Source: Escherichia coli O157 typing phage 14
Length of the DNA: 64,000 nucleotides
Sequence record: KP869112
Reading direction: 5' to 3' (one strand)
Below the pieces are notes generated by a model. It made no database searches. It had not been told where the DNA came from and worked only from the letters and a program-made list of their open reading frames with translations. This document shows, piece by piece, positions 16,310 to 36,994 of this stretch. Position numbers and translations under genes: made by a program. Each line of letters opens with the position of its first letter. Within the stretch, counting starts at the first letter, position 1.

Positions 16310-16525
16310 ATGAAGATAGAAATATTTGGTGGAGCTGACAATACTCGTGGCCTGATTTACCTTGAATTCGATGAATCATACCTGCCAGAGGTGTTAAATA
16401 TGGACTCTGTTGCTGATGCTTTGGGAGTAAGTCCTAAAGATCTCTACTCTGGTGCTGAGATTGATGGTTGGGAGGAGACCATGAACATTGATTTCAGTGA
16501 AGTAGGTGATGAACCACTGGACTGA
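16310..16525 (+). CDS. small acidic protein, MKVK-family-like
   Basis: MKIEIFGG...acidic C-terminus; GAGGAG RBS. Confidence 0.45.
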   Translation: MKIEIFGGADNTRGLIYLEFDESYLPEVLNMDSVADALGVSPKDLYSGAEIDGWEETMNIDFSEVGDEPLD

Positions 16526-18049
16526 CACACAATTAGCTACCCGGCTAAAGTGCTGGGAGCACCTATAACACATCTTTCAACTAAATTTCCTACCACCACA
16601 ATCACTTACCTCCCACACATGACTGTTTGCTTGTTTAGTGAGCAGTCATGCCTTGACATTCTTGCCTATCCTGATAAAATTAAGTTCTTCTCTTTTCTTT
16701 TACCGAGTAATTCGGGTTTTCTGTTCTCTTCGGTTTGAAGGGGTATGGAGATACACCTGAGTGAACAGGGTGAACAACCGAACCATTGGCTATGGCATTA
16801 GCATGGCGAAGCGGACGGGTGACGAAAGAGGGGCCGGAGGACACCAGTCACTGCCATATGATATATAGGTGATAACCTGAAGAGTCTGAATAAGTGTTTA
16901 AGTACCAGTCAGAGGAAAAGGTGAATGGTAGCCGAAGGGGGAGGGGGGTTTCTTGTATCTTTAATTTGTATATTATGTATACACTTGTAAACCAACACCA
17001 TCTGAATTTGCTTACCACACAAAGCGGATAGAGACAAATATTACCTATTAAACTTGAATTATTTATAGAAAATACCACAACACCACTTAAGTCTTTGATT
17101 TTACACATAAATCCTACAGATATTCACCCTCCATATTTAACATACTTGTAACATATCTATACCCAACCTGTCTGATCAACTCACCCAACTACATCCTCCA
17201 TATTTCCCCTGTCTGTACTACCCCTGCCCAGCCGGGAGTCCCGTCATATCTGGCTTTCCAGCAAATATCACACCCACAAATATCATTGCCTGAAGAGGGT
17301 TTCATCCCATAATACATGCCTTACCTGAAGAGCGCTTCATACACCACGTAAATTTTTTAATTGACCTGCAATTTTCCCGTCATGACCCCCTGCCCCGCCA
17401 GAGAGGTTGACTTTTCCCACACAGACCTGAAGAGCCAGCCAGAAATATCTGAACAGGTCCAGTTATACCACGATTTTGACCTGACCGACAGGAGTGCCTC
17501 CCTGTCAGGAGCCGGTAGCGACTGGAGTGCTGCCAGGCGGACGAAATGGGAATACTTCTCATTCTTATAATAATTCTCAAATATCGAGGCAGTGAGGCAA
17601 ATTAATAGGTGAGGCCGTTCACACAGTGGCACAACATTTGCAACCTATCTTGTGGGGTGAATGAGAATACCTATCATTGTGAGAATAGTTATCATTACGG
17701 GCAATTTAACATAATACCCATTATGCGCACCACTGGCGATACATACAGGGGTTGATAACATGAGTTACTGTTTACGCACATAACAATTATATTTCTTACT
17801 ATTTGTGTGGGATATAGTTAGCAGCCGATAGATTAGATATTGACCTGTAGACTTCCAACCGTCTAGACGTCTAAACGCCCACACAACAAGGCTTATACAT
17901 ACATCACTGAATGTAAACAGGACCGCAAAAATGCTACCATACAAGCTTGTAAATTTTTCATGCAGCACTTGACAAAGAGGAGGAAAACTTGTCTGACACA
18001 CTGGGCACAACATAACATACTGCAGCACAATATGACACAATAACGACTG

Positions 18050-18400
18050 TTATTATTTCATGTTTCACTGTTCACGTATAGATTGTTCCCGCATAGACTG
18101 TTTACGCCTGGATAGTTCACGCATAGATGATAAGCCATGCCATTCGTTTGCATGACAATAATTAACTTGTTTACAATAGATGACATAATATAAAAGCAGG
18201 GCAACTATTAGAAGATCATAGTTGCCTTGCTTGTTATGTCATGATTAACTAAATACAAGGCAACTATGATCTGATTAATAGATTGCAGACAAACTATCAC
18301 GGGGGTGATTGTTACTGCTTTTATATTATGTCGCGACTCCGTCGCGCCATGCCATTCGTTTGCATAGTTGCCTTATTGTTACAGATAAAATAATTGTATT
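18050..18400. repeat. cluster of direct and inverted short repeats in large non-coding region
   Basis: Four GTT(C/T)ACGCATAGA-like direct repeats at about 18060-18130; GGCAACTAT/ATAGTTGCC x4; CATGCCATTCGTTTGCAT x2; GACATAATATAAAAGCAG inverted pair. Confidence 0.6.
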
Positions 18401-18985
18401 GTTAATTATTTCTTATCTTTCTATTAGTCATCTAATGATTTCAGTTAGTATAGTAACGTACAGTAAACATTAGACGACTAAAGATTTCTCTGCTTATAAT
18501 AACCTAACGTGACAATTCCGGACTGTTTACGAAAAATGTTGACACCTGAGCTGATTTATGTTATGCAGTTTACACGAATAATTATTTTATGCAGGTATTG
18601 ACTATTCTGTTATTCTATGGTTGGAATAAATACTTAGCAGGCTATAGAATGGTGAGCGTACGTAAATTCTAAGATCTGGCGGCTATAGTTATGCCCGATT
18701 TTTCACGTAGAAAACGCTTTTATGAGTGTGTAAGTGTATGACTTATAAAGATTTTTAGTTGTTGACAAGATACTGAAGATGTGCATCAGGTTAAATTTTG
18801 TGCAATAGCGGCATTACGTGCAATTTTGGAAGGAAAAACGTGTAAAAAATGGCGCTGCTACCACACAATGAAAGATTATGCAATAGCTATTTTACATGTA
18901 TGTTTGTACAGTGGTGGTAATTGATGGCTTGTCGATTATTCCACTTGCCAGGCTGGGCCGTTTGTGGTAGGGGAAATACAGACAA

Positions 18986-19012
18986 AAAGAAAGGGGCCTT
19001 TTAAAGCCCCTG
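18986..19012 (-). terminator. rho-independent terminator (minus strand)
   Basis: GGGGC...GCCCC hairpin followed on minus strand by TTTCTTTTTG. Confidence 0.6.
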
Positions 19013-19029
19013 ATAGTTTAGTTAATAAA

Positions 19030-19449
19030 TTATAATGATTCGTATATTTCAAAAATCCGATTTGCCAGGTCGTTACGGTACCGGAATTTTTCTTCACGTT
19101 TGATCATTAGATCTTTGAAGCCGTATTCTTTAAGCACTTCATTAACTTTATAGCGGCATACCCTCATATTGTCTTGCGCGTCACCGATAAACTTGTTGCT
19201 ATGGTGCATGGCTTTAATTTCTTCTTCCAGGACCAGGGCAACTATGCGGACCGGATCAAGCTGATAGGCGGTAACATCCATGCGGCATTGTAAACGGCTT
19301 TTTACGTCTGCCACCGGGTATACTGCAACCTCTTCCCCGTCAACATTGACAATAATTAGTTTACCATCGATTTCGAATCCTTTCGCCGCCGGACCGTGAC
19401 AAAAAGCGTTATCAAAGCTATATGCCGGATTATTAGATTTGATGTTCAT
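19030..19449 (-). CDS. hypothetical protein (139 aa)
   Basis: ORF at distal end of minus-strand array; terminator downstream. Confidence 0.5.
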   Translation of the reverse strand: MNIKSNNPAYSFDNAFCHGPAAKGFEIDGKLIIVNVDGEEVAVYPVADVKSRLQCRMDVTAYQLDPVRIVALVLEEEIKAMHHSNKFIGDAQDNMRVCRYKVNEVLKEYGFKDLMIKREEKFRYRNDLANRIFEIYESL

Positions 19450-20216: not shown

Positions 20217-20489
20217 TTACTTGCGGCGGCAGAATTCAAGCGTTTTTAATTGATAATCTTCCTCAGCCTGGAGTACGACCGCCTCGATCATTTCGTTGGC
20301 ATTGTTAAAGCCATAACCTTTAGCGAACTCATCCGCGCCACCTTCGTGATCATGTTCTGCGTTCATCGCTTCCACAAAATGGAATTCCAAATTGTTGAGG
20401 TAGGGGCTTGATGTTCCGTCCTCTTTTTCGATGAGATCCCAAATAGCATTAAAACGTGATTCGACTTCTTGATTAATCCAGCTTGACAT
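20217..20489 (-). CDS. hypothetical acidic protein (90 aa)
   Basis: Promoter, hairpin, CACACAACAACCAGAAGAGAGGAAAACATT leader, ATG. Confidence 0.5.
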   Translation of the reverse strand: MSSWINQEVESRFNAIWDLIEKEDGTSSPYLNNLEFHFVEAMNAEHDHEGGADEFAKGYGFNNANEMIEAVVLQAEEDYQLKTLEFCRRK

Positions 20490-20543
20490 AATGTTTTCCT
20501 CTCTTCTGGTTGTTGTGTGGGCACTTTTGCCCCTTCAAGATAA

Positions 20544-20572
20544 ATGTTACCCCACCCCCTGGCAGATGTCAA
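20544..20572 (-). promoter_or_regulatory. sigma70-like promoter on minus strand (TTGACA-N17-TAACAT)
   Basis: Hexamers read on reverse complement upstream of 20217..20489. Confidence 0.5.
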
Positions 20573-20700
20573 CGGTTTTTATAGTTCTTATATGACAGGC
20601 ACCCCCGGTGATTGTCTCCCCCCGTCGCCAGGTGCCTGCCGTGGAATAAGTATAACAAAAAACAGGACCATTGCAAGCCCTGTTTTGTAGTTTATAAATA

Positions 20701-20892
20701 TTATATTTTTTCGCCTATGTAGTCCGGTCGGTTTTTCTCTGTCATGCGCTTTAGCAATTCTTGAATAATCCATATTGCGGTCAATGTCTCATCTTCACGC
20801 TTTGAGTCAACATAATCAGGATCGTTTATAACCTTTGTTTGATTATGATATCTCAATACCGCCAACACTTTTACAGCTTCATCAGTGGTCAT
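20701..20892 (-). CDS. hypothetical protein (63 aa)
   Basis: ORF in minus array. Confidence 0.4.
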   Translation of the reverse strand: MTTDEAVKVLAVLRYHNQTKVINDPDYVDSKREDETLTAIWIIQELLKRMTEKNRPDYIGEKI

Positions 20893-29261: not shown

Positions 29262-29946
29262 AAATTTATCCTCTTTACTGGTTAGTGCGGTGTTGTTCAC
29301 CTTGTAGGGTAATAATACCATGATTAACCTTGTTGTCAACGACTATTTTAAATTATTTTTATGATAGAATCCACCTGCCGCCCCCGCCAGGTTAACCACC
29401 ATTTTTTCGTACTCTTCTTTATGTTCCAACGCTCCCGCCATAGCCTTTTCAACCAGGGCGATAGCCTCAGCGTCATTAATCGCTACATTTTCCAGGGGAT
29501 CATATTACCTTTCATTTTTGTACCTCCTCTCCAGTTGTTGCCTACCCTATAGCATAGCCCTACCAGGTTTGCAAGCTTTCACTCTCCCCTGCCAGGCTGG
29601 CCCCGCCAGGTCCTGGCAGTGGGCGCACCTGGTTATAATTTTTTTTTTGAAAGGTGTTGACAGCGGCCCCGCCAGGTGGCACAATATACCTATCGAAAGG
29701 ACGGCAGGCACCGGTGACGGGGGAGACAACCACCGGGGATGGGCGCTGCATAAAATGAGAACGGTTATCATTATCATTTAAAAATTTATGCAAAAAATCC
29801 TTGCTTTCTTTGTCCTGTGTGATACTATAATAACAAGCCGGGGCAACAGGGGCCGGGAGACAATCACCGGGCCTGCCCGTTATTCTGCAAACGAGAATGA
29901 TTATCATTCAAAATTCTAAATGAGAACTCCTCACATTTAATAAATT

Positions 29947-29964
29947 TAATTAGCATGCTAATTA
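29947..29964. repeat. 18-bp perfect palindrome TAATTAGCATGCTAATTA
   Basis: Read directly; lies in AT-rich intergenic region. Confidence 0.7.
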
Positions 29965-30019
29965 CCCTCCGTAACAATTTCCTATAAAACAGTATCCCAT
30001 AAAATATTCCCATATAGAA

Positions 30020-30480
30020 ATTTTAAAAATCCATTTCTGAAAACGAAAAATCGATTTCGTCCCCAAAAATTTCAGGTCGAGATCCGGAACGATTTCCAGA
30101 AAATCCGATTCAGAAAACGAAAAACAGATCGAGTACTGAGAAATTTATCGAGAAAAATTTTCAGAAAATCCAAGCCCTGAAATGAAAAGTAGATCGAGTA
30201 CCTGGAAAGCTGCACCGCAACTTCAAGATAGTGGTTAGATTGTTACCATAGAAGGTCAAGGGTAAGTGGAGGAAGTTCTGGTAGAGGGAGGTTAGCATGT
30301 GTGGGAAATCTATAATGGTGGCCTGGAATATGGTGCAAACGATAGGATGAGTTATTCAGCTTGTCGCGCCTACTCTGAAAAATCCATTTTAGTTTTCGAT
30401 CCATTTTCTGATTTTCTAAGAATTTTAAAATATCCAGCCTGGTGAAATATCAAAAGGAGGAAATCCATTTTAGAAATCCC
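30020..30480. repeat. cluster of degenerate direct repeats (GAAAATCC / CTGAAAACGAAAAA / AGATCGAGTAC)
   Basis: At least seven related copies in 460 bp of non-coding DNA. Confidence 0.55.
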
Positions 30481-35992: not shown

Positions 35993-36313
35993 TTAATCGT
36001 CAAGTTCAAAATAGATTTTAACAGCTTCATCAAAGATTGGAATCCCGATGTTGTTGATAAGCTGCCAAACTACCATATCTTTACCTGGGTCTGGGAGAAT
36101 GTCAACCTTTCTCCATGCGCTGTATATCCAGTTCGGACCACCTTCTGCACTAACTGGCAGATTTTCACCAGCCTCCTGCAGATACTTATACAGCAAAAGA
36201 TATTCTGGATACTCTAGAACACTGTCCTCTGTAGTGTATAGCAGTTCACGGTATACTTTTAAGAACCCTGCGGGGGTGATGTTTTCAGTCTTCATTTGCT
36301 GCCTCTCCTGCAT
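35993..36313 (-). CDS. hypothetical protein (106 aa)
   Basis: ORF in minus array. Confidence 0.5.
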   Translation of the reverse strand: MQERQQMKTENITPAGFLKVYRELLYTTEDSVLEYPEYLLLYKYLQEAGENLPVSAEGGPNWIYSAWRKVDILPDPGKDMVVWQLINNIGIPIFDEAVKIYFELDD

Positions 36314-36677
36314 TCATCAGATCTGCCATAGCGTCACCAACGAAGAGAACAACCACATCGTTGACAGCGTCAGTATCATCTTTGTTGACGTTGCTGAATT
36401 TAGGACACACAGCAATGATCATATAGACACCGTTACCCACCTGAACTGTCCGTGTGGTGCACATCATGGCGGTATTTGTGCCTTCTTTGAAGGCGAAGCC
36501 TTGAAGACGCTCCTCTAAAGTGTTACCGGTAGATTTCAGAAGCGCCAGCTCGTCCAAGGCATAGATGATGTCTCCGGAAGTTAGTGTTGCCTTGCCATCA
36601 GACACCATAATCACTCCATCAGCACCGTCAAGCTTAGAGGCTTCAAAGATATCAATATCCCAAATATTTTTCATCAC
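36285..36677 (-). CDS. hypothetical protein (130 aa)
   Basis: ORF in minus array. Confidence 0.5.
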   Translation of the reverse strand: MMKNIWDIDIFEASKLDGADGVIMVSDGKATLTSGDIIYALDELALLKSTGNTLEERLQGFAFKEGTNTAMMCTTRTVQVGNGVYMIIAVCPKFSNVNKDDTDAVNDVVVLFVGDAMADLMNAGEAANED

Positions 36678-36994
36678 GCTTCCTCGTCGTCTAAGGAGTT
36701 GAAGATTTCACCGAAGTATTCTAAGACTTCTAGCTCCCGTGTGGTGCAGAAAACACAGTCACCGTTGTCATCCTCGATAACGGCCTCTTTACCCAGAATA
36801 TCTACTTCAAGTTCATCGTTCAACAGGACGGCCCCTGTGTAAACTTTGTCAGCTGTGCAGTCCCGAAAAGCAAAGTCCTTCTCCAGATAGTCTGGCTTAA
36901 CCTTGGCTTTAATTCGTTGGTATTGTTTGGTCATTGCTGTGGTCCCCTTTCGTTTTGATAGGGCCATTATATTAGGCCCTATCACTGTTGTCAA
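36674..36994 (-). CDS. small Cys-containing acidic protein, paralog of 36998..37252
   Basis: Shared AF(K/R)DCT...(D/G)D(C/S)V(F/W)CT motifs. Confidence 0.5.
   Translation of the reverse strand: MTTVIGPNIMALSKRKGTTAMTKQYQRIKAKVKPDYLEKDFAFRDCTADKVYTGAVLLNDELEVDILGKEAVIEDDNGDCVFCTTRELEVLEYFGEIFNSLDDEEA

Follow-up and report, generated by a model that had tools for sequence, protein, structure and literature searches.

An orientation-fixed, promoter-proximal leader motif conserved in early-gene cassettes of rV5-like coliphages and an unrelated phage group

Introduction

What is the short element that lies between the end of one early gene and the promoter of the next in an rV5-like coliphage, and does its recurrence in the same genome reflect a function or a coincidence of base composition? 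The question is raised by a locus (minus strand, 20594..20640; site 1) in a 64,000-nucleotide stretch of DNA from sequence record KP869112, referred to in its entirety as the window. The ordering of early transcription in large virulent phages that depend fully on host RNA polymerase is poorly understood outside T4, and a short sequence that never varies and keeps a constant spacing from a promoter would provide both an easily mutated handle on this process and a bait for its reader.

Results

Three copies of one core in the window

Searching the window with the 17-mer GGGAGACAAYCACCGGG returns three matches, one of them with a single mismatch, where 0.13 are expected; none of 100 shuffled sequences reaches three. 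A profile of 48 distinct family copies also finds exactly three sites in the 64 kb, with E = 7e-8 for site 1 (20624..20594), 2e-7 for site 3 and 5e-5 for site 2, the next match having E = 21. A preliminary description of this DNA had reported a third copy of the core at 20596-20644; its sequence is as quoted there, and both the 17-mer and the profile recover all three sites. Alignment of the three reveals that only about 17-21 nt are shared and that the flanks are unlike.

The same description had named two outcomes that would speak against the element, namely the absence of further copies genome-wide and a similarity explained by chance GC-rich composition. The complete 137,947-bp V5 genome contains exactly three copies, so that formally there are no others to be found in it; the element nevertheless stands, because it is conserved in four genera and in an unrelated phage group, as detailed below. 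Chance similarity of GC-rich sequence is contradicted by the excess over expectation and by conservation, together with the promoter context, over genera. The element is in fact more general than first noted, extending beyond the window to several phage genera and an unrelated group.

Site 1 and its upstream promoter

The window derives from an rV5-like coliphage (Vequintavirus) with 95-97% identity to V5, naswa, EmilHeitz and others. In V5, ORFs 164-208 are the counterpart of this region, and every one of them lies on the minus strand. They belong to a unit, 'genes 10-1-238-164', that the rV5 genome paper proposes to be transcribed together, and the site-1 region belongs to the early unit of genes 238-164. 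The location of site 1 at a regulatory junction, as had been claimed, is confirmed: it is flanked on one side by the terminator of the ORF169 homologue (20686..20659) and on the other by P168 (20572..20544). The ORF169 homologue (20701-20892, minus strand) is the gene ahead of the site, while P168 serves the ORF167/168 homologues (20217-20489, minus strand).

Site 1 itself (20594..20640, minus strand) comprises GGGGGGAGACAATCACCGG and GCCTG within a 10-11-bp stem formed by GGCAGGCACC and GGTGCCTGTC. The minus strand from 20640 to 20596 reads GGCAGGCACCTGGCGACGGGGGGAGACAATCACCGGGGGTGCCTG, and the core 17-mer GGGAGACAATCACCGGG (20604..20620, minus strand) is present with no mismatch. Immediately ahead of it we find an unannotated sigma-70-like promoter (20649..20676, minus strand) of the form TTGCAA-16-TGtTATACT, with a TG-extended -10. 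The -35 of this promoter sits in the loop of the terminator hairpin, AAAACAGGGCTTGCAATGGTCCTGTTTT followed by a T-run (20659..20686, minus strand), which ends the ORF169-homologue transcription unit, and terminator and promoter are thereby fused. Because this promoter lies upstream, site 1 is, as read from the sequence, a transcribed leader and not a spacer upstream of P168. The latter, annotated in V5, has the form TTGACA-17-TAACAT (20544..20572, minus strand), such that the site-1 element lies between tandem promoters, the unannotated one and then P168.

We note that the P168 transcript is predicted to carry a small hairpin, GGGCA-AAAG-TGCCC, a few nucleotides after its start (20519-20532, minus strand), an indication that many early transcripts of this phage start with a 5'-terminal hairpin.

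Sites 2 and 3

The other two copies are arranged in tandem in a stretch of about 500 bp where the sole annotation in V5 is ORF198, on the opposite strand. Site 2 (29715..29748, plus strand; profile E = 5e-5) carries the core as GGGAGACAACCACCGGG at 29721-29737, with one mismatch, and is preceded by a promoter at 29657..29685 (plus strand) of the form TTGACA-17-CACAAT with an upstream TG. Site 3 (29845..29882, plus strand; profile E = 2e-7) carries the core GGGAGACAATCACCGGG at 29855-29871. The -10 region of site 3, TGATACTATAAT (29820..29831, plus strand), offers two options, either TATAAT at 29826-29831 or a TG-extended TACTAT at 29823-29828. Both sites are directed away from, or antisense to, the local genes, and neither has a downstream gene. 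ORF198 of V5 (116782-117060, corresponding to window ~29,560-29,907, minus strand) is the sole CDS annotated over them; its sequence is mostly the reverse complement of both repeated elements and their promoters, and it is probably a spurious ORF call.

The surroundings of these two sites contain several further features. Fur-box-like, AT-rich palindromes lie behind them, GAGAACGGTTATCATTATC (29757-29775) and GAGAATGATTATCATTC (29893-29909), agreeing at 15/19 and 14/19 positions, respectively, with the E. coli Fur consensus; a palindrome of this kind occurs too in L002, L014, L031 and L032. A perfect 7-1-7 palindrome, GAATGAT-T-ATCATTC, is contained in GAGAATGATTATCATTC at 29895-29909, and the GAGAACGGTTATCATTATC palindrome can also be read as a mini-ORF running from an ATG at 29755 to a TAA at 29781 (MRTVIIII-stop). 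In Certrevirus and Seunavirus copies, the block GCAAATGA(G/A)AAT(G/A)GTTATCATT is kept 3' of the motif. A near-perfect long GC-rich hairpin, CCCCTGCCAGG...CCTGGCAGTGGG (29586-29626), is followed by TTATAAT and a ten-T run (29634-29649), and the 13-mer GGCCCCGCCAGGT occurs twice, once in this hairpin (29599-29611) and once in the -35/-10 spacer of the site-2 promoter (29666-29678).

A portable cassette in four genera

With site 1 and its flanks as the query, distant relatives match window positions 20605-20685 alone, at 80-86% identity. These matches fall in unannotated intergenic DNA and cover terminator, promoter and motif, the terminator of the ORF169 homologue and the motif being kept jointly. 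They come from Phapecoctavirus (ESCO13, ZCKP1 and EP57), Seunavirus (EspYZU14) and Certrevirus (DU_PP_IV); SSBI34 was put with Seunavirus by likeness to the EspYZU14 copy, its own record placing it only in Vequintavirinae. The arrangement terminator-promoter-motif is thus kept in four genera, Vequintavirus, Phapecoctavirus, Seunavirus and Certrevirus, and the extended -10 of site 1, TGTTATNCT, is retained in the homologues from the latter three. Overlap of terminator and promoter, as at site 1, recurs in six other genomes and in the cassettes of the second phage group described below.

The upstream gene block is conserved, and the downstream gene varies between genera. Because the downstream genes differ in this way, we regard the unit as a portable cassette at a variable junction. 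The alternative that the motif is the leader of one particular gene is ruled out by the same unlikeness of the downstream genes.

A second, uncultured phage group

A second lineage, uncultured and here called group 2, emerged when contigs from viruses and metagenomes were scanned, and its members include Ga0255090_1000022, Ga0228700_1000372 and a 215-kb contig from ERZ650304; the IMG/VR contig L043 probably belongs to it as well. Group 2 holds 37 motif copies in ~101 kb, about one per 2.7 kb, and its cassettes repeatedly consist of a terminator and TTTATAAT, followed by the motif. Since a same-strand gene lies 85-260 nt downstream in 20 of the 26 evaluable copies, the motif of group 2 is an mRNA leader. 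In the copies inspected, a second promoter is located between motif and gene. Group 2 also displays a partial direct repeat, in which CGGGGGAG(A/C)C occurs twice with ~16-nt spacing.

No protein shared by group 2 and the 64-kb window was detected in the sampled DNA, no GenBank relative of group 2 was found, and PHROGs yielded generic matches only. The leader of L043 is intermediate between rV5 and group-2 leaders. The 548(-) leader of L043, ACAGCACUGGCACUCGGUGGAGAC, resembles the site-1 leader ACGGCAGGCACCUGGCGACGGGGGGAGAC (window 20642..20615, minus strand), a likeness that suggests shared ancestry, and not convergence, of the whole cassettes of the two phage groups. In group-2 cassettes, (A/T)TGTAAC appears ~20-25 nt 3' of the motif, with TGTAA ~11 nt further on (L008, minus strand, downstream of 476; L063, L068 and L076); this pair could be a start-stop pair (AUG/UUG, then UAA) or a direct-repeat protein-binding site.

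Beyond phages, BLAST against 5,426 E. coli genomes found no match to the motif, and the only four matches in 185,579 bacterial and archaeal genomes are chance matches within long ORFs of unrelated MAGs. On these grounds, the presence of the motif in bacterial genomes, prophages included, was rejected. Membership of the family is uncertain for L006, an actinophage-like contig with one intergenic hairpin; the match linking L006 to Microbacterium phages was discarded, as it lies 1.4 kb away from the core and does not cover it.

Sequence conservation of the motif

The motif is ~30 nt long, with GG(G/U)GGAGACAAWCACCGG-N4-GCCYG as its invariant part and GG(G/U)GGAGACAA(U/A/C)CACCGG as its consensus. 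Over the 48 distinct copies, columns G17, A19, G20, A23, A24, C26, A27 and C28 are invariant, and several others are nearly so. In both phage groups, a second block, GCCYG(U), follows 7-12 nt after CACC, and 42 of 56 copies have a Y-G step 10-11 nt beyond CACC. Variation within GACAA is confined to position 2 (A/G) and position 3 (C/U) and is sparse: 43 copies read GACAA, and the remaining 5 of the 48 read GAUAA (2), GGCAA (2) or GGUAA (1). Column 16 holds G in 41 copies, U in 7 and nothing else. U16 is seen in one rV5-like copy (L039), several group-2 copies and L043, and in the GGUG/CACC register it makes a Watson-Crick pair with A27, which never varies.

Some 13 core positions are invariant, whereas divergence has left the terminator, the -35 region and both flanks (5' and 3') unrecognizable. 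Comparison of the copies indicates that the core is under purifying selection in unrelated virulent phages.

Orientation and spacing relative to the promoter

All 54 distinct hits of the profile in 274 kb of DNA from related phages have a -10-like hexamer upstream in the sense orientation, counted with a lenient -10 criterion and with no promoter filter applied; the same criterion finds such a hexamer on the antisense side in 29 of the 54. Site 1 had been described as lying in the opposite orientation to the other two sites. This is correct for genome coordinates only and does not hold relative to its own promoter, given the sense -10 upstream of every hit.

The distance from the sigma-70-type -10 to the motif is 22-36 nt over the copies, always in the sense orientation. 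When measured to GGAGACAA, the spacing equals 22-23 nt for 30 of the 33 copies from group 2; rV5-supergroup copies range from 24 to 36 nt, most often 29. Because the transcription start is assumed to lie ~7 nt after the -10, the motif would span roughly +13 to +45 of the transcript. Its distance to the downstream promoter is variable, from about 44 to >100 nt.

At Phapecoctavirus and Certrevirus loci (L028, L029, L031 and L033), AATCTTTACAA recurs ahead of TTGACA-type promoters, ~10 nt from their -35, and also just upstream of the cassette terminator. This sequence could serve as an UP-like element or as an additional -35.

Secondary structure

At site 1, the stem that had been reported is present: RNAfold gives -24.6 kcal/mol for 20640..20594 (z = -2.2), and its arms compared with shuffled arms give z = -3.9. 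As a trait of the element, however, the long stem does not survive comparison, being no better than shuffled or non-cognate arms over 25-48 copies. RNAalifold predicts two base pairs from 21 mixed copies. Distal arms compared with dinucleotide-shuffled arms give a mean z of -0.2, and distal-arm pairing is significant only in site-1-type copies of Vequintavirus and Certrevirus. Similarly, the proximal closing helix formed with the GCCYG block does not distinguish cognate from non-cognate arms in a permutation test (p = 0.60 and 0.38). A long closing hairpin as a family trait, which fails the RNAalifold, shuffled-arm and cognate versus non-cognate tests alike, was therefore rejected. The sense strand folds better than the antisense strand in 18 of 25 copies, which are not independent of one another.

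The small apical stem GGGGA/UCACC has a G.A mismatch or a bulge in most copies, and the preferred register changes from copy to copy; because this stem is invariant in sequence, it cannot show covariation. A T-run begins 11-14 nt after CACC in ~20 of 33 group-2 copies and in no copy of the rV5 supergroup. The RNA ahead of the group-2 T-run folds weakly and inconsistently (-7 to -8 kcal/mol), often not adjacent to the run. With no T-run in the rV5 supergroup and a weak fold in group 2, a canonical intrinsic terminator or attenuator was also rejected. The family is defined by primary sequence, orientation and promoter distance, with at most a small apical hairpin.

Discussion

The motif is an orientation-fixed, promoter-proximal sequence inside a portable terminator-promoter-leader cassette, and this cassette sits at junctions between small early-gene cassettes, often before a second promoter and gene. 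At gathering thresholds, Rfam 15 returns no match in the whole window; for 29500-30100 at E <= 10, it returns four chance-level matches only, of 10-14 bits. A literature search on the motif sequence gave unrelated eukaryotic matches only, and the rV5 and Certrevirus genome papers list generic sigma-70-like promoters only.

Relation to known regulatory elements

The closest architectural likeness is to the promoter-early stem-loop (PeSL) cassettes of the T4-type phages RB49 and phi1 (PMC2839356), defined as a sigma-70 early promoter with a stem-loop terminator, intergenic and in ORFan-rich regions (PMC2839356). Site 1 has both the promoter and the stem-loop, with the terminator (20686..20659) overlapping the promoter (20676..20649). 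Like PeSLs, which lie in plastic regions between small ORFan genes, it is flanked by small hypothetical ORFs, and further resemblances are the frequent G-run/C-run stems, the many copies per genome (here in group 2) and the placement at junctions where gene content varies among relatives. Several RB49-like ORFs are present nearby in rV5. The differences are that PeSLs as described (PMC2839356) have no invariant transcribed sequence, whereas a ~20-30-nt invariant motif is found here, and that rV5-like genomes carry only three motif cassettes among ~33 predicted promoters. As to PeSLs as recombination substrates in modular shuffling or mini-circle formation, the only counterpart here, an indirect one, is that the cassette is kept between genera where the downstream gene differs. 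What is new is therefore an invariant leader motif added to an early regulatory cassette of an already known type.

Lambdoid nut sites share with the motif a promoter-proximal, transcribed and orientation-dependent placement. The loops of P22 boxB-left and boxB-right are GACAA, identical to the apical G-A-C-A-A of the motif. The GNRA-like pentaloop of boxB, with its extruded third base, tolerates changes at loop positions 2 and 3, and the motif loop G-(A/G)-(C/U)-A-A fits such a pentaloop, as a functional analogy and not as membership of the boxB family. The stems differ: boxB has 5 bp, whereas that of the motif is irregular, with a G.A mismatch or bulged A, and invariant, with no covariation. 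A boxA (GCTCTT[TA]) is found within -60..+40 of 0 of 54 copies, and there is no profile similarity to P22 nutL or nutR. A crude scan of the window ORFs for Arg-rich windows returned doubtful ORFs only. The hosts of the motif are moreover large virulent phages and not lambdoid temperate ones.

The put site of HK022, which is ~70 nt long and combines a triplex with two long stem-loops (PMC9378689), acts as nascent RNA on the transcribing polymerase, aided by a pause (PMC9378689). It resembles the motif in its location just downstream of early promoters and differs from it in that the motif family has no conserved two-stem fold. When the whole HK022 genome is scanned with the profile, the best match has E = 0.93 and lies at 35.3 kb, a short way ahead of the annotated Q gene (36211-36834). 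A sequence relationship to put or nut was rejected, as the profile detects none.

Pause hairpins of the his type and the consensus elemental pause are not sequence-specific, the consensus comprising three bases. The motif recalls them in its 4-5-bp stem, its 6-8-nt loop, the Y-G ~10-11 nt later and the G at -10, and in group 2 also in a U-run starting 11-14 nt after the hairpin. It differs in being invariant, whereas pause hairpins are sequence-independent.

Other candidates were considered and set aside. Mimicry of ToxI or of the pseudo-ToxI of phiTE was rejected because the likeness, 11/14 bases to the ToxI sequence (a 36-nt tandem repeat), is on the antisense strand only; the 25-kb phiTE region with the pseudo-ToxI locus, among tRNA and structural genes, contains no motif copy. 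RNAduplex z-scores of +1.1 to -1.9 against 16S, 23S and 5S rRNA eliminate rRNA antisense or 16S 3'-end mimicry, and the BLAST search of 5,426 genomes eliminates a host mimic or E. coli target. Sigma-54 and CRP sites, Chi, RfaH ops and CsrA sites, as well as a short reading frame that is translated and a primer of the G-quadruplex or R-loop kind, were set aside, their fit seeming poor or inconsistent from copy to copy.

A nascent-RNA recognition site and its rivals

We tentatively favour a role in cis as a nascent-RNA recognition site, a boxB-like GNNAA hairpin read by a candidate protein, a reading that we hold to be possible and short of probable. The motif would act in cis, on RNA initiated at the upstream promoter. 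On emerging from RNA polymerase, it would fold into a hairpin, GG(G/U)G(G)/(Y)CACC, that is short and irregular, with an apical G-N-N-A-A loop resembling the GNRA-like pentaloop of P22 boxB. A trans-acting phage or host protein would read the hairpin and the adjacent G-rich sequence, and a protein bound this early, with the polymerase not far from the promoter, would mark the transcription complex or the transcript. The outcome could be (I) read-through of the many terminators that separate early cassettes, (II) a polymerase held at a pause, for which the step from CACC to GG and the Y-G step ten nt on would fit G-10/Y-1/G+1, or (III) protection of the 5' end, to which the extra long stem at site 1 may add. 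As support, the three-base pause consensus is weak evidence.

The G/U alternation at column 16 and the confinement of loop tolerance to positions 2 and 3 would favour the nascent-RNA reading, as would the sense -10 ahead of all 54 hits, the spacing from it, the same-strand genes behind most group-2 copies, the Y-G step after CACC and the better folding of the sense strand in 18 of 25 copies. Against it stand a conserved secondary structure that is not demonstrable, the lack of a boxA and a candidate binding protein that was not found, and invariance of sequence over unrelated phages is equally expected of a DNA-binding site. A pure mRNA-leader role fits poorly with sites 2 and 3, which are antisense to local genes and have no downstream gene. 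We propose, with considerable doubt, that the motif represents a type of promoter-proximal control signal not described before, spread among unrelated virulent phages probably by horizontal transfer of entire cassettes.

The main and serious rival to the nascent-RNA reading, though in our estimate a rather unlikely one, is a double-stranded DNA operator for a sequence-specific, probably phage-encoded regulator, which would block escape or elongation at +13 to +45 and thereby shut off a subset of early promoters, or else act from about -55 to -100 on the downstream promoter. Conservation of primary sequence with no demonstrable RNA structure is what such an operator would predict, as are the fixed distance to the upstream promoter, the partial direct repeat of group 2 and the tandem promoters that flank the element (seen at site 1, in L043 and in those group-2 copies that were inspected); V5 moreover encodes a putative GntR-type regulator, ORF79, and many early proteins with no assigned role. 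Yet the motif is asymmetric and has one orientation relative to the promoter (54/54), neither of which a roadblock needs, its distance to the downstream promoter varies, no candidate protein is common to both phage groups in the sampled sequence, and the G/U alternation and tolerance at loop positions 2 and 3 are more naturally features of RNA. Alternatively, the product itself could be a short 5' RNA, acting as an abundant small non-coding RNA or decoy that ends, by termination or processing, soon behind the motif, or as a 5'-terminal stabiliser against 5'-end-dependent decay. T4 Srd stimulates RNase E, and a Srd-like ORF11 is annotated in V5. The stable site-1 hairpin, starting ~2-3 nt after the predicted transcription start, agrees with this idea, as do the small hairpin with which the P168 transcript would also open, the T-run 11-14 nt after CACC in ~20 of 33 group-2 copies and the units with no downstream gene (sites 2 and 3, L011a and others). 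We consider it unlikely all the same: the weak, inconsistent fold before the T-run and the lack of a T-run in the rV5 supergroup leave no canonical terminator, a generic stabiliser hairpin needs no invariant sequence of ~20 nt, neither rRNA complementarity nor an E. coli target or copy (by BLAST) was found, and most group-2 copies precede genes.

The remaining two explanations deny the core a function of its own. It could be hitch-hiking in a recently spread, mobile PeSL-like terminator-promoter module, in keeping with the PeSL-like architecture, the location in small-ORFan regions at points of differing gene content and the intermediate leader of L043; the ~13 core positions that remain invariant in 48 copies, against a diverged remainder of the cassette, make this very unlikely. 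Finally, the three copies could be a chance likeness of GC-rich intergenic hairpins, since the flanks are GC-rich islands in an AT-rich genome and isolated core matches occur in GC-rich contigs. With three copies against 0.13 expected, profile E-values of 1e-5 to 1e-8 and conservation over genera in the same promoter context, we attach practically no weight to it.

If the nascent-RNA reading is true, the motif would play in lytic phages the part that nut, put or ops play elsewhere, marking a defined subset of early transcription complexes or transcripts. It would then be served by a dedicated factor, with antitermination over cassettes, programmed pausing or protection from phage-induced RNA decay as its possible roles. 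The motif is present three times in rV5-like therapeutic coliphages and about once per 2.7 kb in the uncultured lineage, and its distribution illustrates that regulatory cassettes, and not genes alone, are common to unrelated phages.

Annotation of related genomes

In practical terms, the motif points to promoters missing from the annotation of widely used phage genomes and to one ORF call in them, V5 ORF198, that is probably spurious. Separately, a 2.6-kb stretch of the window (~16,400-19,030; V5 104,014-106,617) has no annotated gene in the V5 record and separates the two transcription units that run towards each other; Figure 2 of the rV5 paper presumably shows this stretch as its 'non-coding' box. 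We also note that ~20 GenBank 'Campylobacter phage' records, MG0656xx (e.g., MG065635, MG065647 and MG065658), with Campylobacter jejuni as the listed host, have 92-97% identity to rV5-like coliphages over the regions searched. The host assignment is odd, and the label may reflect contamination or mislabelling.
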